From NCBI GenBank assembly GCA_964391185.1, contig CAYMIX010000004.1, positions 48,088 through 112,087 on the forward strand: 64,000 bases of DNA, written 5' to 3'. Shown piece by piece: positions 2,052 through 56,984 of this stretch. The position numbers and the translations under genes were made by a program. The notes beneath the pieces are model-generated. The model had not been told where the DNA came from and did no database searches. It saw only the letters and a list, made by a program, of their open reading frames with translations. Position 1 is the first letter of the stretch. Each line of letters opens with the position of its first letter. Origin of the DNA: an uncultured Candidatus Peribacteria bacterium (GTDB lineage Bacteria > Patescibacteriota > Gracilibacteria > Peribacterales > Peribacteraceae).

Positions 2052-2720
2052 TCACGGCACATTCTTGTTCACTTCATCAATCACTTTCTCGAGCATGTGT
2101 TTAAGTTGCTTTCGACGTTTTTCTTGAAAGTGATAAATAACGAGTGCAGCAACGATAGCGCCGATCATGTTTGCGATGAGGTCCCAGCCTGTGTTTGTGT
2201 AACCGCCGACGTTTGTATTGGGAATAAGTAGTGTTGCGACGAATTCAATGATTTCATTGAGTGCGCCCAGACCCATACCTGCGAGTAAGCAGAGTGTAAG
2301 AACTCCTGCAGTTGGGAGAGATTTCGGGAGTAGAGCGTGCAATGTCTGCCAGGAAACCCATGTGGCAATGCCGAATCCGTACGAGTGCACAAATTGATCG
2401 TATTTAAAGTAATTGGGGATAATCCACCAGCTATAGAGAACGTGTTTGTCGCCGCTGACGAGCCAGTCATCAGGAACGGGAACAAGCCCGCCCATCATAT
2501 GAAGAAGCCCCCAGATACTCAGGCACCACAGTGCACCTTTGCTGAGATTCACGCGACGATGCAGGCTTGCGACGAGCAACGCCAACACCAACATCACGAT
2601 GATGTAAAAGACAAACTCCCAGTTTTGCGTGCGGAAGGCAAAAACGGTGGCAAGGCCGATATACCCAAGCGTGAATGCTGCGACCGGCCGTATGGAGTTG
2701 TGCATGGCCAGGAGTATCAC
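2052..2720 (-). CDS. Polytopic membrane protein (YjdF/DUF2238-like by impression)
   Basis: About 6 hydrophobic helices. GTG start at 2720 or ATG at 2705. Family assignment is a weak recollection only. Confidence 0.6.
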   Translation of the reverse strand: MILLAMHNSIRPVAAFTLGYIGLATVFAFRTQNWEFVFYIIVMLVLALLVASLHRRVNLSKGALWCLSIWGLLHMMGGLVPVPDDWLVSGDKHVLYSWWIIPNYFKYDQFVHSYGFGIATWVSWQTLHALLPKSLPTAGVLTLCLLAGMGLGALNEIIEFVATLLIPNTNVGGYTNTGWDLIANMIGAIVAALVIYHFQEKRRKQLKHMLEKVIDEVNKNVP

Positions 2721-2824
2721 GTGATGACCGGTTTATCGCAAATGCTTGCTGTATACCTTGCTTGTGCAACGCTGTAATATGTGGCGCTGATATTCGTCCT
2801 CATACCTGTCTACCCCTCCTTTGT

Positions 2825-3709
2825 ATGAAGATCCCTTTGCCTTCCCATGTCGGCATGTTTGCCCTCACAGGTGTTCTCGTCGTAGCGCCAGTACTCGCGG
2901 TGACGACGATGTTCGCACAGCCGTTTTATTGTGATCCATACACGCAGAATTGTGGAACGGTGAATAATCAGAATACGTACAATCCATATCTGACGAACCC
3001 AAACTTGGGTGCCCAGCAACATGCGTACAACGAAGCGTTTAATAATTTCTACACGCAGTATCGCAATCAACCCGTCCGAATGGACATCGGTCCGGGCGGA
3101 CCGAATGGGAATAATCAAAACCATGGTCAGGTGAATCAGCCGGTAGACCAGAGTTGGTTGCAGCGATCTTCTGCACGTTCGAGGAGTTTGATCAATTATC
3201 AAGATCCGATCTATCCACCATATGGTGAGAATGGAACGTCGTTTGGTTACCCGTATCAGGGATATAACCCAAATTATTATGGATCAACGAGTTCGGCTCG
3301 TTCATCTGTGTACTACGCACAGTCAACGAATATGAATATGTGGGTGCAGTACCTGAGCCAGGAGCGTTATATGGAGTGTATGCAGGATGTGGTGGAGCGT
3401 CGTGAACAGGATGTGCAAGATGTGTATGGTGATTATCATCGTCAGTATGAACAATTGCTGCTCGAACGATCACAGGGTCGCATAACAACATGGCAGATAA
3501 CCGATAGCAGGCGTCGTCGTGATAGAGAACGTCAGGTGGATCGCGATTTCCGCGAACGTTTCCGCGACCTGGAACGTTGGCTCGATGATCGCGAAGATGA
3601 CATCGAAGACGCGTACCGCAACGATAGCCGTGAGTGTGATCGCGTGCGCAAAGAAATGGAGCGACAGGAGCGTGACCAGGAACGCGAATTGCAACGTGCG
3701 AGTAGATAA
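2825..3709 (+). CDS. Secreted low-complexity protein: signal/TM, Q/N/Y/P-rich middle, R/D/E-rich C-terminus
   Basis: Start moved to ATG 2825 (MKIPLPSHVGMFALTGVLVVAPVLAV). Composition is read from the track translation. Confidence 0.6.
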   Translation: MKIPLPSHVGMFALTGVLVVAPVLAVTTMFAQPFYCDPYTQNCGTVNNQNTYNPYLTNPNLGAQQHAYNEAFNNFYTQYRNQPVRMDIGPGGPNGNNQNHGQVNQPVDQSWLQRSSARSRSLINYQDPIYPPYGENGTSFGYPYQGYNPNYYGSTSSARSSVYYAQSTNMNMWVQYLSQERYMECMQDVVERREQDVQDVYGDYHRQYEQLLLERSQGRITTWQITDSRRRRDRERQVDRDFRERFRDLERWLDDREDDIEDAYRNDSRECDRVRKEMERQERDQERELQRASR

Positions 3710-31581: not shown

Positions 31582-32544
31582 TTATTCGATGTATCCCTTC
31601 TGCATATCAAGTTTTTGCGTGGAACGTACTTTTCCATTCGATCCAATGACAGTTGCTTCCCATGTGAGGCGCACCCCGGTTTCGAAGCGAGTGTCCGATG
31701 TCAGTACTGCCTTGAGTGCTTCACCTTTTTGAATATCAACCGATGTATGAAGCGGCAAATAAATCTGTTCCCAGTGCGTTGGCTTTTCCCATGGGCTCGT
31801 TGATAACGTCACACCAGGAACGAGGCCTGATTCCCAAAACACGCAGAAGCCGTTCACGGTTGCTGGCTTATCGAATATCCACGATACCTCGCCACGGCGC
31901 TGGCTTTTTTCGTGTTTGGTGAAGTTCAGTGTGTCCCATGTTTTTACTGCATCTTTCGAGAGGAGATCTTTCGGGTCCACCGTCTTCACATACATATTAT
32001 TGATGCTGATATCCCGCGCTTCATCCCATGCGAGATCAAACCCAATGTCGTGCCAAATATCGACATTCTTTTTTAGTCGACCACCAGTCACAGGAACGAT
32101 TTTATGAACGAGGGTTTGTGGAATCATCACGCCGCCTGGCTTAAGGAATCGCTTCGCATCTTCCATATTTTCTATCAGGTGTTCTTCCAGTGCATAGTTA
32201 CCCAGAGTCTCCGAAATAACGATGTCTGTTTGCACGGGCTTTTTCATCATGTGCGCGTGCGCGTGGATAAACTCACAGCCGTGGATCTTATTGCGTTTTG
32301 CGAGCTGTTTGCTGATGCCAATCAAATCACTCGAAAGCTCGTACAAGTAACACTTCTTCGCACCGAGTTGCATCGCGAGGAAGCTCAGGAAGCCTGTGCC
32401 AGAACCGATATCCGATACAGTCATTCCTGGCTTGATGACCTTCTTCAGCGCTTCGTAAAACGCTTGATTGCGGACATCATCACCCATTAATTTGCGCTGG
32501 AGTTCGATCATGGGAGGATTGTAGCAGGTGCGAATGTAATCCAC
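31582..32544 (-). CDS. Protein arginine N-methyltransferase (PRMT)-like class I methyltransferase with beta-barrel domain
   Basis: L.GDDVRN.AFYEAL; motif I VSDIGSGTGFLS; post-I LYELS; double-E-type SETLGNYALEEHL; THW loop PTHWEQ. Start is GTG 32544 or ATG 32511. Confidence 0.7.
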   Translation of the reverse strand: MDYIRTCYNPPMIELQRKLMGDDVRNQAFYEALKKVIKPGMTVSDIGSGTGFLSFLAMQLGAKKCYLYELSSDLIGISKQLAKRNKIHGCEFIHAHAHMMKKPVQTDIVISETLGNYALEEHLIENMEDAKRFLKPGGVMIPQTLVHKIVPVTGGRLKKNVDIWHDIGFDLAWDEARDISINNMYVKTVDPKDLLSKDAVKTWDTLNFTKHEKSQRRGEVSWIFDKPATVNGFCVFWESGLVPGVTLSTSPWEKPTHWEQIYLPLHTSVDIQKGEALKAVLTSDTRFETGVRLTWEATVIGSNGKVRSTQKLDMQKGYIE

Positions 32545-48701: not shown

Positions 48702-50153
48702 ATGAGAGGAAACATGCACAACAAGACACACATATCAAAAAGGCACCGTTGGACCATCGGAATTCCAGTGTTTTTGGCGTGTTTGGCGCTCAGTATGAGC
48801 GACGTTCTACTTCCAGCATCTGTGCTCACGCAGCCACCGTCCGTCATTCTTGAAGGAAGCGTCGTGCAGTCTGGTTCAGTTGTGACCATGCAAAAGGGAA
48901 CGGCTTCAATTACTGCACGTGACTTGGTAACTATTCACGCTGAAGATGTAACTATTTCTGCATGGCACGGAGCATTTGATATTTCTGCTGATGCACAAAA
49001 GCTCACGATTGCAGCTCTGACGACTCCGGTACTTCTCACTAAAGGTACACGGCAATGGATAATCCCAGCGTCGATGCAGGGAATTTTCCATATAGATCAG
49101 GAAATAACAGATGAACCATATACGTGGATAGATGATGTGCAGCTGTACCCAATGCCTGCGCATTATATGGAGGAACGTTTGCCTGTTGCACGGCGCATCA
49201 TGAGTGCGTTCAAGGGTGTATCTCTCAGTGAAACATCGCCATTGTTTGAGCTTCATAAAGCTCTAGTAGATGGTCACTTGGAACAAGCTCGCACATTGCT
49301 GATGCAGCCAGGAATGGAAATGAATTTGCGTACAGCCGATGAATCATTGCGTTCAGACATGTACGTGAATGCTCGTGCACTTGGACTAGAGAATGTCTTC
49401 CTCGCATTCTTGGCAGGGGATTCCAAAGACTTACAGATGCTCACACTCGCTCATCCGCTCACGCGCGCAGATGCGTGGGTTCTTCCACATGAGAATAATC
49501 TCACGGAGGTTCTGATGTTGATCCCGAGTGATCGCTTGGAAGATGCAGTCCCACAATTGGTTATTGACCAATGGGCTGCAGAACTCGCCCAGGCAATGGA
49601 CAATGCCGAAGACATGAATGTGTTCGCATCCGCAACGTTCCCGGCTTTCCACGAGATGATCGCAGCTCTTCGCGATGCTGGTTACCCACACAGGTCTAAG
49701 CAATATGCACAGGCGATTGTGAACGCATTGCACAAAGACATTCGCTCGCTCAATGACGATGCTCGTGCATCATTTGCATCCATCGAAACACTCGCTCACG
49801 GCGATGTGCCGGTTGCGGAAGAAGTCGTTCTTCCTGTTACTGAAACAGGTTCTGTATCAGCGAGCGAAACTGTCGATGTTGTCTCCATCAATATAAACGA
49901 AGCTGTTGCTACTCTCCGTGCAAACTTAGCCGGCTACGGCGCGATGTTTACGAGTAAGACACTTATCGCCCCAAACACCTCCGGACGCATCCAGGTCGAT
50001 GGCTTGGTCATTGCGACGGCTCATGGCGATACATTGCTGCGCTTCACATATAACCCAGCCTCCGACGAAGTTGAAAACATCGAACACGACGGCAAAATCC
50101 TTCCGTACAGTCTCAGCTTGGAGAAGTACGTGGAGTGGGTGAAGGGGAAATAA
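48702..50153 (+). CDS. Large secreted/anchored hypothetical protein
   Basis: N-terminal TM/signal IGIPVFLACLALS; no motif recognised. Confidence 0.55.
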   Translation: MRGNMHNKTHISKRHRWTIGIPVFLACLALSMSDVLLPASVLTQPPSVILEGSVVQSGSVVTMQKGTASITARDLVTIHAEDVTISAWHGAFDISADAQKLTIAALTTPVLLTKGTRQWIIPASMQGIFHIDQEITDEPYTWIDDVQLYPMPAHYMEERLPVARRIMSAFKGVSLSETSPLFELHKALVDGHLEQARTLLMQPGMEMNLRTADESLRSDMYVNARALGLENVFLAFLAGDSKDLQMLTLAHPLTRADAWVLPHENNLTEVLMLIPSDRLEDAVPQLVIDQWAAELAQAMDNAEDMNVFASATFPAFHEMIAALRDAGYPHRSKQYAQAIVNALHKDIRSLNDDARASFASIETLAHGDVPVAEEVVLPVTETGSVSASETVDVVSININEAVATLRANLAGYGAMFTSKTLIAPNTSGRIQVDGLVIATAHGDTLLRFTYNPASDEVENIEHDGKILPYSLSLEKYVEWVKGK

Positions 50154-50167
50154 GATATCATGCGCTC

Positions 50168-50947
50168 ATGTACTACGAGCAATCGCTTTCCGTTGAGTAC
50201 AAAGGCCAAACGTTTGATATTTCCTATGCTGAAGTGAAGCGCGGTGGAACGACCGTGATTTGTTTGCACGGGCTACAATCGAATAAAGAGATGTTTGCAC
50301 CGATGCAGGATTTGTTTGAGCGGAAGAAGTTTTCCACGATTGCCATCGACTTTATTGGCTTTGGGAAATCATCGAAGCCTTTGGACTTCTCGTATGACGT
50401 AGAAGATCAGGCGGGGATTATCGATAAAGTTTTTGAAAAACTACGTCTGCAGAAGTTCTGCATCTTGGGCCACAGCATGGGTGGAATGGTTGGCACCATG
50501 CTGCTGAAATCGTGGCGGAGTAGTCTGCTGGAATTTGTGAATATGGAAGGGAATTTTGTGCTGGAAGATTGTGGTGCGAGTTTGCCAGTATCGCAAATGT
50601 CCTTCGAAGAATTCTCGCAGAAGTGGTATCCAGAATTTCTCGCATCACTAGAAACATCTGCGGAGCCAGGTGCAAAAGATCGCAGGAAATGGCTTCGCTC
50701 TACGCCGGATTACGTGTTCTACAAAACGTCCAAGTCTATCGTCGATTGGTCACGCAGTGAGAAGTTACTTCCGATGTTTACCGAATCTCCCGTACAAAAA
50801 TCATTCTTCTACGGAGAGAAAAATGCGCGGAAGAGAGAAGTGCTCCCAGCATCCATTCCTACATCCAAAATTCCCAACGCAGGGCACTTTATGTTTGCGG
50901 ATAACCCAGAAGAGACATTGAGGGCAATTGATGATTTCCTGCTGTGA
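50168..50947 (+). CDS. Alpha/beta hydrolase
   Basis: Start moved to ATG 50168; VICLHGLQSN, GHSMGG. Confidence 0.8.
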   Translation: MYYEQSLSVEYKGQTFDISYAEVKRGGTTVICLHGLQSNKEMFAPMQDLFERKKFSTIAIDFIGFGKSSKPLDFSYDVEDQAGIIDKVFEKLRLQKFCILGHSMGGMVGTMLLKSWRSSLLEFVNMEGNFVLEDCGASLPVSQMSFEEFSQKWYPEFLASLETSAEPGAKDRRKWLRSTPDYVFYKTSKSIVDWSRSEKLLPMFTESPVQKSFFYGEKNARKREVLPASIPTSKIPNAGHFMFADNPEETLRAIDDFLL

Positions 50948-51173
50948 TAATGGTGGTGGGCGACTGCCGAGTAGATACTTACTGTTCCATATTCCTATAG
51001 TCCTAGAGAAAAAGATACATTTCGTGGATAACGGGCAGTTCAGGAAGGGCTATGAGAAAGTGGTGGTGAGGGAATTGGATGTGAGGTCGGACCAATGGAA
51101 GAACTCGGATGCAGAGGTATTAGCGCGATAGAGGAGATAGCAATATAAGCACGGAAGCCTATAATTGCATGTA

Positions 51174-53225
51174 ATGAAATATGTGAGAATATTCAAGGAA
51201 ATAGATAAACACCATGTTTTAGAAGCAGGGGGAAAGGGCGCGTCTCTTGGTGAGCTTTTGAAAGCTGGTATTCCAGTTCCAAAAGGATTTGTCATTACTT
51301 CAAGAGCCTTCGACATATTTATCAAAGAGTCTGCTTTAGACACAGAGATTGAAGCTGCTCTCGATAAAGTTGATACAAGAGAAATGCACACGGTGGAGAA
51401 TGCTTCGGAGAGGATTCACGCTCTCATTGAGAAAGAAGATTTGCCTGAAAACCTCAAGAAAGAGATTGCAGAGTCATTCAGAAAGCTTGGTACAAAGTAC
51501 GTTGCAGTTCGTTCGAGTGCGACGGCAGAAGACAGTGATATTGCTGCATGGGCAGGACAACTTGAAACATATCTGAATACGACGGAAAAAACGCTGATTG
51601 AGAAGGTAAAGAAGTGCTGGGCTTCACTATTCTCGCCAAGGGCCATCTTTTACCGCTTTGAGAAGGGATTTCATAAACAGAAAGTCTCAGTTGCCGTAGT
51701 CGTGCAGGCCATGATCGAAAGTGAAAAGTCTGGCATCGCTTTCTCGGTGCATCCTGTGACTCAAGATAAAAACCAACTCATCATCGAAGCAGGATTTGGT
51801 TTGGGTGAAGCAATCGTTTCAGGGTCCATTACGCCAGACAGTTATGTTATACGGAAAGATAACTGGAAGATCATTGATAGACAGATTCAGACACAAGCAC
51901 GCGGTCTCTATAGGGCTAAAAATGGCGGCAATGGATGGATAGCACTGCCTGTATCCAAAGGCAGAAAGCCCACGCTGTCAGATAGTGAAGCCATTACTCT
52001 TGCAAAGCTTGTTACAAAAATAGAAAAGCATCATGGCTTTCCTGTTGATGTTGAATGGGCAATGGCCGAAAAGAAGTTTTCCATTTTGCAGTCGAGGCCA
52101 ATCACAACATTGAATGAAAAAGTCCCTGTTGATATTTTCGATTCCTCAAGGAAGTGGGTTCCCTATCTGACACGTCCTTTCAATCTCTTCGGTGCTTCGC
52201 TATGGCAGTCATGGTATGACTCTGATCTCATCAAGAAGCTCCTCGGTATCTATTTTCCTTCTGCGTTATTCATTGAAGAGCATTTTAATGTTGTAAAGCT
52301 GTACCGTGAAGCTAACGATCTGTCTGCATTCAAATCTTCTATCAAAAATATTGTCACAAAGAAAGCATCGTATCTCCAATCAATCTTTGAGCATGGGTTT
52401 GAGCTTAACAATACAGCCTTAGCCTATATAAACGGCAAAAAGAAATGCGCTGATCTCAATGAGGCCGTGAGTTTTATGGTTGAACTCGCTCTCCATGCCA
52501 CGGTTATTCCGAACTTCGCATTACCTCTCATTGTGGAGATGAAGAAAGAATCAAAGCTGCAAAAGCTCGGCGAGGAACTACGGGGAAAATCTCATTATCC
52601 CAAGTTCATATCGCATATTCTTATGCCTTTAGCACAGAAAAAACTACGACAGCTAAAGTTTGCAGATGGAAAACGTGCAATCGAGTTAATCACGCTCCAA
52701 GAGTTACTTGCAGGAAATGTTCAGGAGCTTCCAAAGCGCATGAAGGCACGTTACAAGTTGGGACAACGATTCGTGTATCAGAAAACGGATAAGAGCGAGA
52801 TAGTGAGCTGGGTAGCAGACCCACTGTCACTCATTGCCGAATTAGAAGGCATTGATCTGGGAAGCAGCAAGGGTTTGAAGCAGTTGAAAGGACAGATTGC
52901 CTTCAAAGGAAAGGTGAAAGGTATCGCCAGAGTTATTCTGAGCGACAATACAAAGGGCGTCCGATTCGATATGGGTGATATTCTGGTTTCGATTCATTCC
53001 AGTCCTACCCTCATGCCATTGATTTTGCGCTGTGCGGCTATTGTCACTGATGAAGGTGGTATTTCCTGTCACGCAGCAATTGTTTCGCGTGAATTGAAGA
53101 AGCCATGTGTAATGAGTACCAAAATCGCAACATCGGTCATCAAAGACGGAGATTTGATTGAGGTGGATGCTGAACGAGGGATTGTTAGCATTCTAAAACC
53201 AAGGAGAAGCCATGCCGCTCGCTGA
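51174..53225 (+). CDS. PEP-utilizing-enzyme family phosphotransferase: PPDK_N ATP-grasp domain + unknown middle + C-terminal swivel phosphohistidine domain (no PEP/pyruvate TIM barrel)
   Basis: GGKGASLGEL, VAVRSSATAEDS, AAWAGQLETYLN, VEWA...ILQSRPIT; C-terminal VTDEGGISCHAAIVSRELKKPCV. Confidence 0.8.
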   Translation: MKYVRIFKEIDKHHVLEAGGKGASLGELLKAGIPVPKGFVITSRAFDIFIKESALDTEIEAALDKVDTREMHTVENASERIHALIEKEDLPENLKKEIAESFRKLGTKYVAVRSSATAEDSDIAAWAGQLETYLNTTEKTLIEKVKKCWASLFSPRAIFYRFEKGFHKQKVSVAVVVQAMIESEKSGIAFSVHPVTQDKNQLIIEAGFGLGEAIVSGSITPDSYVIRKDNWKIIDRQIQTQARGLYRAKNGGNGWIALPVSKGRKPTLSDSEAITLAKLVTKIEKHHGFPVDVEWAMAEKKFSILQSRPITTLNEKVPVDIFDSSRKWVPYLTRPFNLFGASLWQSWYDSDLIKKLLGIYFPSALFIEEHFNVVKLYREANDLSAFKSSIKNIVTKKASYLQSIFEHGFELNNTALAYINGKKKCADLNEAVSFMVELALHATVIPNFALPLIVEMKKESKLQKLGEELRGKSHYPKFISHILMPLAQKKLRQLKFADGKRAIELITLQELLAGNVQELPKRMKARYKLGQRFVYQKTDKSEIVSWVADPLSLIAELEGIDLGSSKGLKQLKGQIAFKGKVKGIARVILSDNTKGVRFDMGDILVSIHSSPTLMPLILRCAAIVTDEGGISCHAAIVSRELKKPCVMSTKIATSVIKDGDLIEVDAERGIVSILKPRRSHAAR

Positions 53226-54483
53226 AACATTCACGCCCGGCTTTCTCGCTTCTGTAGGCATTTCTCCTAAGCGTTTGGAATCAGCCATTGCAACGATTCG
53301 CTCAGTTTTCTCAGAGGAGTACTTAGAAAATTTGAAGAAGCTCTATAAAGGCGAAAAGGCGTATCAGGTTTTCAAGCACCCAATCTATAACGGAATGCTT
53401 ATGGGGGAAGTCAGTCTTGATACGCCAATCGTAATTGAGCTTGCAGCATGCTTGGAGAAACTAAAGGGCAAACCCAACCTCGCTGGCATTATTCAAAGAT
53501 TGAAGGACCTCGATGACTTCGACGATTATTTCTATCAGCTATCTACGGCATACAGATTGAGTTTTCTTGACCCAAATATCCAAATGGAACCTCTCATTAA
53601 ACAGAAGACGCCCGATAATGTGATCGAGTTTGGTGGAAAGAAATGTGCAATCGAATGCACTGTGATGTCGGGTTCTCATACATATGGAAAATTGGAAGAT
53701 GCAATGCACCGCGTGAAGTCAGTTGTCTTTTCACAAGCCGAAAAAAGCAACTATCCATGCAACATCCACCTTACTGCAACTCAGTTATCCATCGTCACTC
53801 CTGAGAATGTTGAAGCAATGAAGAATGCAATACGGGAGATGATTGAGAAGAAAAGCGCACCACAGGAAAGGGATTTAGGATTCTGCAAAATTGCGATCCT
53901 TCCACCACATCAGAGACCAGAAAAAGCGGAGATGGGAATGATGCAAACATGGACACCTCTAGCTGGTGCGCAGGAATTGCATTTAAGAGGAATTACCAAT
54001 GAAGAACAGAAATACACGGCAGGCTTTTTTGTGAGCATTAGCCCGATTCGCTCTTTGTTGATTAAAGAAGCTGAAGATAGAGTTTATGAGAAGATAGAGA
54101 GTAAAAGAGCACAGGTTAAAGTCTTGAAAGACGACCATGAAATCTTCTTATTCATTGATACAGATATAAGTGACAGGCAACTCGCTGAACGGGAAAAAGA
54201 GATAAGTCACGAGATCATTTCAAATTTTCTCGCTAAAGATGATCCTCTCTTTTCTCTCATCGTTCTGACAAACAGACCAAGAGGCAATCACAGTTTATTT
54301 GCGATTAATCGAATGATCTATGGTGAGAAAGGCATTGATCAGCAGTGGCTTGAGAAATTTTGGAAGGGCTATATGCAGCCCTCTGTAGACCACAATTTTT
54401 TTCTAAAAACTGTAGGTAGGAATGACCTTTGTCCCTGTGGAAGTGGAATGAAATTCAAGCGATGCCACGGGTATCATATTTAA
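53212..54483 (+). CDS. Unknown-function protein with C-terminal SEC-C metal-binding motif
   Basis: Terminal GRNDLCPCGSGMKFKRCHG; overlaps the upstream gene by 14 nt. Confidence 0.6.
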   Translation: MPLAETFTPGFLASVGISPKRLESAIATIRSVFSEEYLENLKKLYKGEKAYQVFKHPIYNGMLMGEVSLDTPIVIELAACLEKLKGKPNLAGIIQRLKDLDDFDDYFYQLSTAYRLSFLDPNIQMEPLIKQKTPDNVIEFGGKKCAIECTVMSGSHTYGKLEDAMHRVKSVVFSQAEKSNYPCNIHLTATQLSIVTPENVEAMKNAIREMIEKKSAPQERDLGFCKIAILPPHQRPEKAEMGMMQTWTPLAGAQELHLRGITNEEQKYTAGFFVSISPIRSLLIKEAEDRVYEKIESKRAQVKVLKDDHEIFLFIDTDISDRQLAEREKEISHEIISNFLAKDDPLFSLIVLTNRPRGNHSLFAINRMIYGEKGIDQQWLEKFWKGYMQPSVDHNFFLKTVGRNDLCPCGSGMKFKRCHGYHI

Positions 54484-54552
54484 TCGAACTCAAGCATTGT
54501 TGTGCAGAGTTGCACGTATTTCATTTCTAGTACGTGCTGTACAATGTTCCTT

Positions 54553-55014
54553 ATGCCAACAGGTAGAAACTCGAAGTACAGCACGCAGATACAAGCTGCG
54601 CTCTGTAAATGGCTCAAAAAGGGTTGTAGCTACAAAGATGCATGCGCCATGGAGGGAATCAGCTACGAAACCTTCCGCACGTGGGAGAAGGAGAAATCTG
54701 CGTTTTCTGTGGCCTTAAAAAAAGCGGAGGCCGAATGTAAGGCTGCACGTATTGCAACGATCCTCAAAGCCTCAGAGAAGAGCTGGCAGGCGGCCGCGTG
54801 GTGGCTAGAGAGGCGGTGCCCTGATGAGTATGGGCGCATGGTAAAGGAAGAGAAGCCAACAAACATCGTAACGATTGAAGAATTTGAAGAGGCGGCTCGT
54901 CAACAGGATGCAATGCGGTGCAAGACGATAGAGGAGGCACGAGCACGAAAATTGGAGAGAGAAGACAGGAGTGCTGTGATAAACTGTTCGTACATCATTC
55001 AACTTTCCTATTGA
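54553..55014 (+). CDS. Phage-type HTH DNA-binding protein (terminase-small-subunit-like / possible directionality factor)
   Basis: ..GCSYKDACAMEGISYETFRTWEKE.. HTH and WQAAAWWLERRCPDEYGR signature. Confidence 0.5.
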   Translation: MPTGRNSKYSTQIQAALCKWLKKGCSYKDACAMEGISYETFRTWEKEKSAFSVALKKAEAECKAARIATILKASEKSWQAAAWWLERRCPDEYGRMVKEEKPTNIVTIEEFEEAARQQDAMRCKTIEEARARKLEREDRSAVINCSYIIQLSY

Positions 55015-55258
55015 AGCCACACGTCCCTCGGGACGCGCGGGCGCGCTTTGCGATGTCCTCAGAAACCAGTCACAAACGGCAGAAGAGAAAGCGATGTCCT
55101 ACGGACCTCACGCTCTCCGTGCGTTACCCTGAAGAGAATCCACCGAATGCCCTTGAAGACATCACAAACGTGCTGGCATACACAGGCTTCTTTGATGGTA
55201 TAAAGCAACAATGACTACCTTTGTTTGAGTTCGATCTAAAAAGGGATAGAATCTCGGC

Positions 55259-56929
55259 ATGTCGGGTCTCGCACATAATGGAGAGAAGAGGCGTTTAGCG
55301 ATCTATATACGTGTTTCTACGCAGGAACAGAAGATGGATGGATATGGATTGGAAGCACAGGAAAAGCGTCTGACTGACTATGTAGAGAAGAATGAGGGTC
55401 TAGGGTTACAAACCAAGAAACAATGGCTCTACACGGACGTACATACGGGCAGTGACCTTAGCCGTGATGGACTCAATCGCTTACGAGAAGACGTGCGTGC
55501 TGGGAAGTACGATGCTGTGCTTGTGTGGAAGATTGACCGCCTTTCACGCAGCCTCAAGCACCTTCTCACGATCTTTGAAGAGTTTCAGAAGCATGATGTG
55601 AGCTTTATCTCCATTCAGGAGAACATTGATTTTCGTGGACCTATAGGAAACCTCATTTTTCAGATATTCGGTGCAATCGCACAGTTCGAGCGCGAACTTA
55701 TCAAAGGCCGCACACAGATGGGACGTATTGCCTCTGCGGAAATGGGGAACTTTACGGGTACGAACATTCCCTACGGGTACAACAAAGTGCCGAACGAACG
55801 AGGTAAGGGCAGCAAGCTTGTTCTCATCCCAGCAGAGAAGAAATGGGTCGAACAAATCTACAAATGGTACATCTATGAAGATATGGGTGATGGACAAATA
55901 GCAACGAGGCTCAATGAACTCAAAGTGCAGAAAACCAATCACAAGCGTACGAGCAGAGCGAGTATGGAATGGACGCACATCATGGTGCGTACCATCGTCA
56001 CAAACCCTCTCTATCGGGGCGAGTTCGTTGCCAATAGAACCGATGAAATGAATACGATTCTTCCTGAAGATCAGTGGACCCTCGTAGCCATTCCAGCATG
56101 TGTTTCAGAGTTCACCTTTCTGCAAGCGCAGGAAGCGCGCAAACAGCGTGTAAGCAATATTGCTGGTACAGAGTACCTTCTGAGCGGAAAGCTGGTGGAT
56201 ATGGACCTAGAAAGGCCTAAGCGATTCGTGGGAGCTAAGCGGTACAAGGGAGGGTTCAGCTATCGCCGCAAACAATTCGACAAAGGCGGTAAGCACTATC
56301 CCGTGTTCGAGATCGCAGGGCAGCAGATGGAAGATTTTGTGTGGGATAAGATTGTTGAGGCTTTGAATGACCCTCAAGCATTCATCAAGCACTACCTGAG
56401 CCGTGAACATGCAGACCCAAGCCGCATTGATATGTTGCAGCAGCAACTTTCAACGCTGCGTGAACGCAAAATGAATAATGATCTCGCTATTGCTCGAATC
56501 GAGAATGCATACGAAGAGGGCAGGTACTCACAAGAAAAGATGGAAGAGAAGGTAGTTGAGCGAAACAAGGAAAATGTGGAGATCGAAATGAAGGTGCAGG
56601 AAACAGAGGATCAACTCGCCATTATCAGTAGCCATGAAATCCAAATCGAAAAGCTCGAAGAAATTTCAAAGCAGACGAAAGAAAACCTCAAAAACTATGA
56701 TAGGAGGCAGAAGAAAATCATGTGCCAGCTACTTATTGAGCGCGTCGAAATGAGCAGGCGCAAGGTTCACGGACGCTGGAAAACCCACGGACAGGTGGTC
56801 TTCCATTTCAACCTCAACAAGTTTGAGAGGGAGGTAGATATGGGTAGAACCGTGAAAAAGCTTGTGCAAAACGTAAAGTCGAGATCAAGACCGAAAATTG
56901 ATGTAGATGGTGGGCGACGGCAGACTTGA
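55259..56929 (+). CDS. Large serine recombinase (resolvase/invertase catalytic domain + recombinase domain + coiled coil)
   Basis: LAIYIRVSTQEQ (catalytic Ser), VWKIDRLSRS, FGAIAQFERELI. The last 7 codons and TGA lie inside the tRNA-Ile gene (antisense). Confidence 0.9.
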   Translation: MSGLAHNGEKRRLAIYIRVSTQEQKMDGYGLEAQEKRLTDYVEKNEGLGLQTKKQWLYTDVHTGSDLSRDGLNRLREDVRAGKYDAVLVWKIDRLSRSLKHLLTIFEEFQKHDVSFISIQENIDFRGPIGNLIFQIFGAIAQFERELIKGRTQMGRIASAEMGNFTGTNIPYGYNKVPNERGKGSKLVLIPAEKKWVEQIYKWYIYEDMGDGQIATRLNELKVQKTNHKRTSRASMEWTHIMVRTIVTNPLYRGEFVANRTDEMNTILPEDQWTLVAIPACVSEFTFLQAQEARKQRVSNIAGTEYLLSGKLVDMDLERPKRFVGAKRYKGGFSYRRKQFDKGGKHYPVFEIAGQQMEDFVWDKIVEALNDPQAFIKHYLSREHADPSRIDMLQQQLSTLRERKMNNDLAIARIENAYEEGRYSQEKMEEKVVERNKENVEIEMKVQETEDQLAIISSHEIQIEKLEEISKQTKENLKNYDRRQKKIMCQLLIERVEMSRRKVHGRWKTHGQVVFHFNLNKFEREVDMGRTVKKLVQNVKSRSRPKIDVDGGRRQT

Positions 56930-56984
56930 ACTGCCGACCTCGACATTATCAGTGTCGCGCTCTAACCAGCTGAGCTAGCCGCCC
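56908..56984 (-). tRNA. tRNA-Ile (anticodon GAU), CCA encoded
   Basis: Reverse complement: gggcggc/gtcgccc acceptor, cgaca-CTGATAA-tgtcg, ggcag-ttcaagt-ctgcc. Confidence 0.9.

Follow-up and report, generated by a model that had tools for sequence, protein, structure and literature searches.

What happens to an integrase gene when the site at which its element recombines with the chromosome lies within the gene itself? This question is raised by a locus of an uncultured Candidatus Peribacteria bacterium (contig CAYMIX010000004.1), in a stretch of 64,000 nucleotides which was analysed as a whole (the window). In this stretch, the gene of a large serine recombinase (LSR) terminates inside a tRNA-Ile gene. 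An earlier reading of the bare sequence (the original prediction) had proposed an integrative island whose crossover core lies within the 3′ end of the recombinase gene. The best overall explanation, which is very probably the right one, is that the island is borne by this LSR, that the attachment site of its free form (attP) lies within the LSR gene, and that the gene is split upon integration. The features needed to follow the argument are listed below; loci other than the window are designated by L and a number.

50135..50947, + strand: host alpha/beta-hydrolase gene, left chromosomal flank, outside the island (Pfam; syntenic with L087).
50954..50964, + strand: attL core, copied from the 3′ end of tRNA-Ile (antisense of GTCGCCCACCA), an exact 11-mer, one of two in the window.
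50965..51131, + strand: Crem, the detached 3′ part of the LSR gene, 55 codons and a stop (LPSRYLLFHIPIVLEKKIHFVDNGQFRKGYEKVVVRELDV...LAR*), with no start codon of its own there, assigned by frame continuity.
55259..56929, + strand: LSR gene in its integrated (truncated) form, 556 residues (Pfam Resolvase and Recombinase).
56908..56918, + strand: attR core, identical to the attL core, tRNA 3′ end including CCA (exact 11-mer).
56908..56984, − strand: intact target gene, tRNA-Ile(GAT) (called by ARAGORN; 91% identical to the tRNA-Ile of L087).

An island between a tRNA gene and a copy of its 3′ end

The 11-mer TGGTGGGCGAC is the antisense of the last 11 nt of tRNA-Ile(GAT), CCA included. It occurs exactly at 50954-50964 and 56908-56918 only, on the same strand and 5,954 bp apart, as had been predicted; the sole match with one mismatch is on the opposite strand, at 32076, and the 11-mer is therefore not common within the window. 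An exact same-strand 11-mer is expected by chance about 0.002 times in 10 kb (10,000/4^11). The integrase gene lies between the copies, with the intact tRNA gene at one end, and the other copy follows the end of the hydrolase open reading frame (ORF, 50947) after six bases, TAATGG. The presence of the recombinase, of a helix-turn-helix (HTH) gene and of a two-gene cargo between the repeats was confirmed by the ORFs and Pfam. The composition of the island is also deviant: its GC content is 0.450, compared to 0.478 for the window outside it (none of 186 windows of equal size is as low), and its tetranucleotide distance is 0.241, compared to 0.123 ± 0.015, beyond the maximum of the other windows (0.169).

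The related locus L087 has the same gene order without the island. On the left it shares a thioredoxin-reductase-like gene, NUDIX, SMC_N, RuvC, a gene of unknown function and the hydrolase (63% identical); the tRNA-Ile(GAT) gene lies 156 nt past the hydrolase stop, followed on the right by phosphoribosyl pyrophosphate (PRPP) synthetase, a 185-aa ORF and a type IV secretion system (T4SS) pilin. Window positions 50956-56905 have no counterpart in L087, and no hairpin module (the Crem-type module described below) is detectable there. The search for an empty site thus yielded a collinear relative lacking the island, and not an exact empty site of the same species. Because a direct repeat bounds the block, the LSR gene adjoins the tRNA gene, the composition is deviant and L087 is collinear without the block, positions 50954-56918 are, with high confidence, an integrative element of 5.95 kb, which its own LSR has placed at the 3′ end of tRNA-Ile(GAT).

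A recombinase gene split at its attachment site

The LSR ends in ...VDGGRRQT-TGA. Codons 1-553 belong to the element, whereas tRNA antisense supplies the final three codons and the stop (RQT-TGA), which is 22 nt inside the tRNA gene, in line with the original reading. At the other end of the island, the LSR frame, set relative to the core, remains open for 55 codons past the left repeat (GGR|LPSRYLLFHIPIVLEKKIHFVDNGQFRKGYEKVVVRELDV...LAR*); the chance of such an open frame is about 0.045 at this base composition. Since the frame is open past the attL core, joining the ends of the element through one core would give an LSR of about 608 residues. The predicted attP junction, in which 56907 is joined to 50965 via one core, is ...GAAAATTGATGTAGA-TGGTGGGCGAC-TGCCGAGTAGATAC..., and the predicted repaired attB is ...CTGCTGTGATAATGG-TGGTGGGCGAC-GGCAGACTTGAAC....

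The attP site is inside the LSR coding sequence, at the DNA encoding the end of a disordered, glycine-rich linker; the natural stop comes about 55 codons later. When it recombines with the 3′ end of the tRNA gene, the LSR gene is cut in two: codons 1-553 stay beside the tRNA, read three antisense codons and stop at the T-loop TGA, yielding a 556-aa protein, while the last 55 codons, which encode a predicted β-hairpin module, end up 5.95 kb away at attL, where they keep the frame of the repeated core. Both parts would be rejoined by excision. The cell would therefore make one LSR isoform or the other depending on the state of the element, of about 608 residues when it is free and 556 when it is integrated.

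The proposal that integration rebuilds both the tRNA end and the recombinase C-terminus has to be revised for the latter: the 55-aa module is replaced by three tRNA-encoded residues and the T-loop TGA. The hexamer tgccga, which was noticed after the left repeat and after the T-loop and attributed to the tRNA, does occur at both places, but after the left repeat it is not derived from the tRNA and codes for Leu-Pro-Ser in the detached module. The hexamer belongs to the P′ arm of the element, because it is conserved in sister islands that target tRNA-Leu (L004, L115).

The free and integrated forms can be compared in a sister subfamily. The Logan contig L105 (6,310 nt) has a 27-nt terminal overlap, which gives a circle of 6,283 bp; once it is closed, an ORF of 402 residues runs across the junction. 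The circle lacks a tRNA and carries a contiguous LSR of 592 residues (P0084). In blastn alignments, L105 2360-3990 matches L020 10021-11651, the LSR gene up to the 3′ end of tRNA-Thr, and L105 3983-4102 matches L020 389-508, which holds the attL module; gene order is conserved on either side. From these alignments, L105 and L020 are related as attP to attL/attR, in two related elements. Together with the frame that continues into Crem, the contrast between the contiguous gene of L105 and the split gene of L020 strengthens the earlier claim that the crossover core is within the 3′ end of the recombinase gene. L105 alone had a terminal overlap; none was found in the first 18 loci taken as whole contigs.

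A contiguous LSR of 612 residues (P0065) is also found in L106 (5829-8282), in an element without tRNA which encodes a Prim-Pol/AAA_25 replication protein. This context suggests that some members of the family ride on self-replicating elements.

In long homologs, a minority of 580-615 residues, Crem is contiguous with the enzyme and ends in a GYTFFTCKFYIKK...KVIYRTFLEE-type motif. A hidden Markov model (HMM) built only from the tails of these contiguous homologs detects extra copies upstream of integrated LSR genes, on the same strand. After iteration, the HMM finds modules 5-11 kb upstream in L006, L007, L013, L016, L020, L022 and L037, and modules were also found in L039, L040 and the window subfamily once those sequences served as seeds. 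Crem follows a copy of a tRNA 3′ end in frame in the window, L004, L005, L013, L016, L020, L022, L037 and L039. The attL and attR frames agree in 10 of 10 clear pairs, with the module directly behind the tRNA 3′-end copy each time, and a detached, in-frame Crem is present at attL in at least 10 loci.

The module of the window is divergent, and it was therefore checked by HMM, by profile-profile alignment and in sister islands. Against the iterated HMM without window-type sequences, it scores E = 6.6 over 19,016 six-frame segments, i.e., about 3.5e-4 for one pre-specified segment. A profile of eight window-type modules aligns with the Crem profile of the other subfamilies over 36 columns (hhalign probability 88%, P = 2.8e-6). 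A scan of metagenomes for hairpin-coding DNA gave five further attL sites of the window subfamily (L111-L115), and all seven sister islands (L004, L005 and L111-L115), which have different left flanks, have an in-frame module after the core. The core is of the tRNA-Leu type in two of them (L004 and L115).

Between the window and L005, 19 of the 36 codons of the Crem core are identical, 13 differ synonymously and 4 nonsynonymously; the synonymous and nonsynonymous differences are 62 and 13 in the catalytic domain, and 5 and 9 in the linker. By these codon counts, purifying selection acts on Crem as strongly as on the catalytic domain, and much more strongly than on the linker.

In L005 (2355-4193) and L111 (3-986), a host gene of the left flank has no stop and reads in frame into Crem, which would give the host protein a foreign tail of about 55 residues; this may be due to chance. 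The 612-aa ORF of L005 is this host gene running into the detached module, and the idea that L005 is a tandem LSR array was rejected. In L088 (7768-7965) and L089 (2014-2211), a hydrolase homolog is closely preceded by a weak match to the hairpin, SGGRCSDSYTVFQIPIEI... (E = 0.16), which may be a very old remnant or noise.

The same arrangement is seen at many tRNA genes. The 556-aa LSR has 468 homologs at E ≤ 1e-20, mostly of 552-565 residues, and those which bear source labels come from Peregrinibacteria or Peribacteria. Many of their C-termini look like translated tRNA antisense (...GGRWRT, ...GATCRI, ...GATYRSRTDDPLFTRQLLYQLS). When one genome per species was scanned, 35 loci were obtained, with LSRs 44-78% identical, and in 23 of these 35 related loci the LSR stop is inside the antisense of a tRNA gene. 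The distance from the tRNA 3′ end to the stop is 12, 15, 21, 51 or 84 nt; since all are multiples of three, the T of TGG is always at codon position 3. With the window included, a single codon register is used in 24 of 24 loci, and the stop is the T-loop TGA at +21 in 18 of them. The targets are 13 tRNAs: Ile-GAT, Ile-TAT, Leu-TAG/CAA/GAG/CAG, Met, Phe, Thr-TGT/GGT/CGT, Ala-GGC and Val-GAC. The LSR of L004, which is 78% identical, is in tRNA-Leu(TAG) and not in tRNA-Ile. The comparison of loci thus indicates that hundreds of LSRs from genomes of the Peregrinibacteria/Peribacteria type behave alike, at no fewer than 13 tRNA species and in one codon register.

In L024 (12537-12948) and L026 (17820-18254), where the LSR does not end in a tRNA, a transfer-messenger RNA (tmRNA) gene lies 0.7-6 kb downstream on the opposite strand. 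The C-termini of these two LSRs have no match to the hairpin HMM.

In 10 islands, the blocks of identity between attL and attR are 5-15 bp long. Each of them includes TGGN, the antisense of CCA and the discriminator (tRNA antisense positions 1-4), and this is the sole stretch common to all attL/attR pairs. For this reason the crossover is probably within TGGN, i.e., at 56908-56911 (TGGT) in the window.

Regarding the protein, the window LSR has a catalytic domain (PF00239, 2.6e-38, residues 14-163) and a recombinase domain (RD, PF07508, 1.9e-16, residues 191-297). S20 of the IYIRVSTxEQ motif is invariant across 23 aligned homologs. No zinc ribbon was found in the window LSR with Pfam, and it has no cysteine ligands. 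The AlphaFold2 model of the homolog P0084 (mean predicted local distance difference test score, pLDDT, of 80) begins with the catalytic domain and a long helix E, followed by the RD, a β-rich region (312-354), long helices forming a coiled coil (388-473) and a hairpin (494-516). The segment 523-558 is disordered (pLDDT <50) and precedes a long β-hairpin (562-591, pLDDT about 80). The disordered linker ends in the stretch encoded by the att core, and the split therefore removes the hairpin only.

Foldseek aligns this model over about 560 columns with the full-length SPbeta-type, phiC31, Bxb1 and LI integrases (E 1e-21 to 1e-8; 1e-21 to 1e-15 for the first three), and the catalytic domain matches that of TP901-1 with a template modelling (TM) score of 0.84. 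A sequence search of the PDB detected the catalytic domain alone, and the whole architecture is visible by fold search. From its domain content and predicted fold, the enzyme belongs to the large serine recombinases; zinc binding is doubtful.

Several results weigh against the proposed split, or against details of it. The hairpin of the window type is only weakly similar to those of the other subfamilies. The placement of the crossover comes from identity blocks only: when 11 attP and 10 attB sites were reconstructed and scanned for dyad symmetry, no axis stood out clearly that could have placed it. The unoccupied site of L087 is distant (flanks of about 65% nucleotide identity), and its spacer between hydrolase and tRNA is 156 nt, compared to 6 nt in the window. 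The predicted attB (TGATAATGGTGGTGGGCGACGGCAGA) has 0 exact matches in the JGI metagenome contigs. Every Logan contig with an identical hydrolase or LSR carries the island, and no excised circle was seen among them; the circular form that the original prediction implied was found neither as a junction in Logan contigs nor in the representative proteins. The five sites added by the hairpin-DNA scan are all attL, and no free attP form of the window subfamily was among them. A 58-aa query spanning the continuation retrieved no full-length, 608-aa LSR of the window type from 1.84 billion representatives, its 9 matches being ORFs of 70-126 residues called at attL sites; since this library keeps one representative per 50%-identity cluster, the full-length form could be hidden.

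Two Logan assemblies, made independently for one and the same island, break inside or just after the overlap with tRNA-Ile, L001 at 6 nt and L002 at 34 nt past the LSR stop. Such breaks would fit a branch point of the assembly graph, due to occupied and empty sites or to another tRNA copy, and they are no proof of either.

Proposed function of the split and competing explanations

The hairpin is strongly constrained and yet absent from the protein of the integrated state, from which we infer that the truncation has a function; a control of activity or directionality that depends on the state of the element is favoured. The full-length LSR would integrate the element, and the truncated LSR would be restrained or altered, so that the inserted state is stabilised. 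Such a control is plausible because the integrase of phage Mx8 changes its C-terminus, SSV-type integrases split their gene, and the directionality factor of phiC31 uses hairpins. By analogy with these systems, there is an even chance that a hairpin carried by a flexible linker of about 35 residues modulates activity or directionality, with isoforms that depend on the state.

The strongest competitor is a suicidal version of the same scheme, in which the hairpin is essential for any recombination: integration would inactivate the LSR and lock the island until a related full-length LSR acts in trans. The physical split of the gene and a hairpin core constrained like the catalytic domain both agree with it, the same logic has been described for the SSV, pTN3 and pT26-2 integrases (PMC8371274), and copies that look like decayed relatives exist (L114 and L115). 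However, unlike in SSV, the 556-aa product keeps the N-terminal domain (NTD), the RD, the putative ZD-like region and the coiled coil, and an intact ORF of about 555 codons was found in all 24 tRNA-adjacent copies examined. The suicidal version is therefore possible, but on the doubtful side.

The two copies just mentioned differ in what remains. L114 is a 3.3-kb island at tRNA-Ile (3431-3507); its sole LSR-like ORF (2463-3452, 329 residues) ends in ...FDVSNGGRWLT inside the tRNA, is truncated at the N-terminus and has no tblastn match to the window LSR at E ≤ 1e-5. In L115, an LSR remnant (442-1488, residues 202-551) without catalytic domain comes directly after the attL module.

A different alternative concerns the movement of the island from cell to cell only, and is compatible with the integration mechanism. 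The island could be a phage satellite or a prophage remnant, whose transfer would need a helper phage and whose TerS-like gene would redirect packaging. It bears on the genes carried between Crem and the LSR, which are the following.

51174..53225, + strand: cargo gene 1, PPDK_N (ATP-grasp) and PEP-utilizers swivel-domain protein, 683-686 residues (Pfam, NCBIfam, gene calls on Logan contigs).
53212..54483, + strand: cargo gene 2, encoding 423 residues with a SEC-C metal-binding motif at the C-terminus (Pfam SEC-C, 1.4e-9).
54544..55014, + strand: small HTH protein, 156 residues, terminase-small-subunit-like, directly upstream of the LSR (PHROG 4102, 2.3e-23).

The satellite explanation draws on the HTH protein, which matches terminase small-subunit PHROGs and is kept beside the LSR in the sister islands L004 and L005 (81% identical). 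This protein (Pfam Sf6_terminase match under cutoff) could be a packaging gene of the satellite type, but equally a DNA-binding excision factor, i.e., an excisionase or directionality factor. PICI-like satellites combine a small-terminase homolog, with which they hijack the packaging of the helper phage, with replication and interference genes and are excised upon induction by the helper. No other phage, replication, packaging, primase or capsid-related gene was found in the 5.95-kb island with Pfam and PHROG. Moreover, only distant matches to the catalytic domain were obtained among the viral contigs of IMG/VR, with no close relatives, and the family is therefore not a recognised phage group. 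The cargo also varies: cargo genes 1 and 2, which overlap by 14 nt, are absent from the sister islands, which carry other cargo. A satellite is thus unlikely.

Cargo gene 1 resembles phosphoenolpyruvate (PEP) synthase and rifamycin phosphotransferase in the ATP-grasp and swivel domains only, and is under every curated cutoff of NCBIfam. The idea that the cargo is a defence system was not retained, as the PADLOC matches are at the level of the SEC-C motif only.

It is still less probable that the overlap is neutral, attP being in the 3′ end of the gene by chance, with a dispensable hairpin, two equivalent isoforms and no regulatory effect. The split point is indeed in a disordered linker, behind all recognised LSR domains, and canonical LSRs such as Bxb1 are not known to have such a C-terminal tail, which agrees with the lengths of the Foldseek targets. 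Against this, the detached fragment is open, in frame and under purifying selection across genomes and tRNAs, and the codon register is invariant in the 24 loci.

Finally, a coincidental pair of 11-mers in an ordinary, non-mobile part of the chromosome, for which the shortness of the repeat (11 bp) and the missing same-species empty site might speak, is extremely improbable given the expectation of about 0.002, the deviant composition, the absence of the block from the collinear L087, the recurrence of the architecture at 13 tRNA species and the existence of a circular relative.

Beyond the split itself, a broader view of the family may be put forward tentatively. It would use the universal, genomically encoded CCA end of tRNAs as its crossover and hop between tRNA species with few changes. 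The hairpin, lost on integration and restored on excision, would be a built-in directionality device, the cis equivalent of separate directionality factors, and the internal att site could capture cassettes in the manner of an integron (with L020, L022, L039, L028 and L030 as candidates).

Some loci have more than one module. In L020 (297-530 and 1453-1584), L022 (4661-4825 and 5310-5483) and L039 (3152-3373 and 5823-6020), two copies of the core followed by the hairpin module lie upstream of the LSR, 0.65-2.7 kb apart and with no LSR in the interval; these may be cassettes that lack an integrase, or what earlier insertions left behind. In L028 (9974-11782 and 15321-15470) and L030 (9986-11809 and 16006-16167), the LSR is contiguous and full-length, and a second, diverged hairpin module is located 3.5-4.3 kb downstream, while a tRNA is absent within 21 kb. 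An excised element with two modules would be expected to have this layout. The second module of L028 is preceded by a terminator-like hairpin, and the two intervening genes appear by eye to encode an OLD-type ATPase and a UvrD-like helicase.

Comparison with known systems

Serine integrases are leading tools for the insertion of large DNA, and their choice of target and one-way behaviour are active questions. The family described here adds tRNA genes to their targets. Since close relatives use different tRNAs, it offers a natural series of enzymes and att sites in which to follow shifts of specificity, and the 608-aa and 556-aa isoforms provide a simple test of whether a tethered hairpin controls directionality. 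It also puts on record small, active mobile elements, whose cargo varies, for bacteria of the candidate phyla radiation, in which mobile DNA is poorly known.

In 2014, it was stated that serine integrases are not known to target tRNA genes (PMC4383910). In the literature covered, which leaves out most subscription journals, no account was found, for these bacteria, of serine integrases dividing their own gene or using tRNA genes as targets. The combination of a serine integrase island, integration into tRNA genes and an attP inside the integrase gene was thus not found described, and examples of it may already be present, without comment, in large island databases.

Islander-type islands have the same layout, in which the island extends from an intact tRNA gene to a displaced fragment of its 3′ end and the integrase gene is beside the tRNA. 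They encode tyrosine integrases and usually have longer repeats, whereas the window island has a serine recombinase and an 11-bp repeat (4-17 bp across the family).

The window family has the order of domains of the canonical LSRs (phiC31, Bxb1, A118/LI, SPbeta and TP901-1), with the recombinase domain after the resolvase catalytic domain and then, in the model, a putative ZD-like region that bears a long coiled coil; the att sites of the canonical LSRs likewise share a short core only. Large serine recombinases join attP and attB through a crossover of 2 bp and need a directionality factor for excision; in the window family, the shared identity points to TGGN. The window family differs from them by its additional linker and hairpin and the lack of a Pfam zinc ribbon, the window protein being devoid of cysteine ligands. 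It differs also in the location of attP, which is outside the int gene of canonical LSRs, and in the targets, which are mostly protein-coding genes in their case.

The best precedent for the change of C-terminus is phage Mx8, whose integrase is described as converted from IntP to IntX at tRNA-Asp: attP is in the int coding sequence, which acquires a new 3′ end in the prophage (PMC6070905; PMC4383910). This change, which is reported to alter the activity, has been interpreted as a regulation of the integrase (PMC6070905). In both systems, the free and integrated forms at a tRNA gene give different C-termini. However, the Int of Mx8, a myxobacterial phage of 50 kb, is a tyrosine recombinase, with a different fold and chemistry from the LSR, in which a small tethered hairpin is detached; and Mx8 integrates into tRNA-Asp, whereas the window family spans many tRNA targets in candidate-phyla bacteria.

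The integrases of SSV1, pTN3 and pT26-2 also have their site inside the ORF: when the element enters a tRNA gene, the integrase gene is left as two fragments, one at each end of the element, and excision restores it, and recombinases which interrupt the gene encoding them have been described as exclusively archaeal (PMC8371274). In the SSV type, the split parts an N-terminal portion from the catalytic domain and destroys the enzyme, whereas in the window it removes about 9% of the protein, after all known functional domains. The gene split thus works like those of Mx8 IntP/IntX and of the SSV type, while the LSR is not a member of these tyrosine-recombinase families.

The closest parallel to the hairpin itself is found in phiC31. 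The hairpins of gp3 grip the tip of the ZD and the hinge of the coiled coil of Int (bioRxiv 10.1101/2025.05.02.651858), and gp3 is reported still to work, and to change directionality, when it is tethered to the C-terminus of Int by a linker of about 32 residues (bioRxiv 10.1101/2025.05.02.651858; PMC5737554). The likeness is in the small, β-hairpin-containing module, the flexible linker and the attachment to the integrase C-terminus. The Int-gp3 fusion is artificial, and its fused recombination directionality factor promotes excision, whereas the module of the window is natural, has about 35 residues and would be joined to the enzyme in the episomal state only. If it controls direction, the window module must therefore favour integration or block excision.

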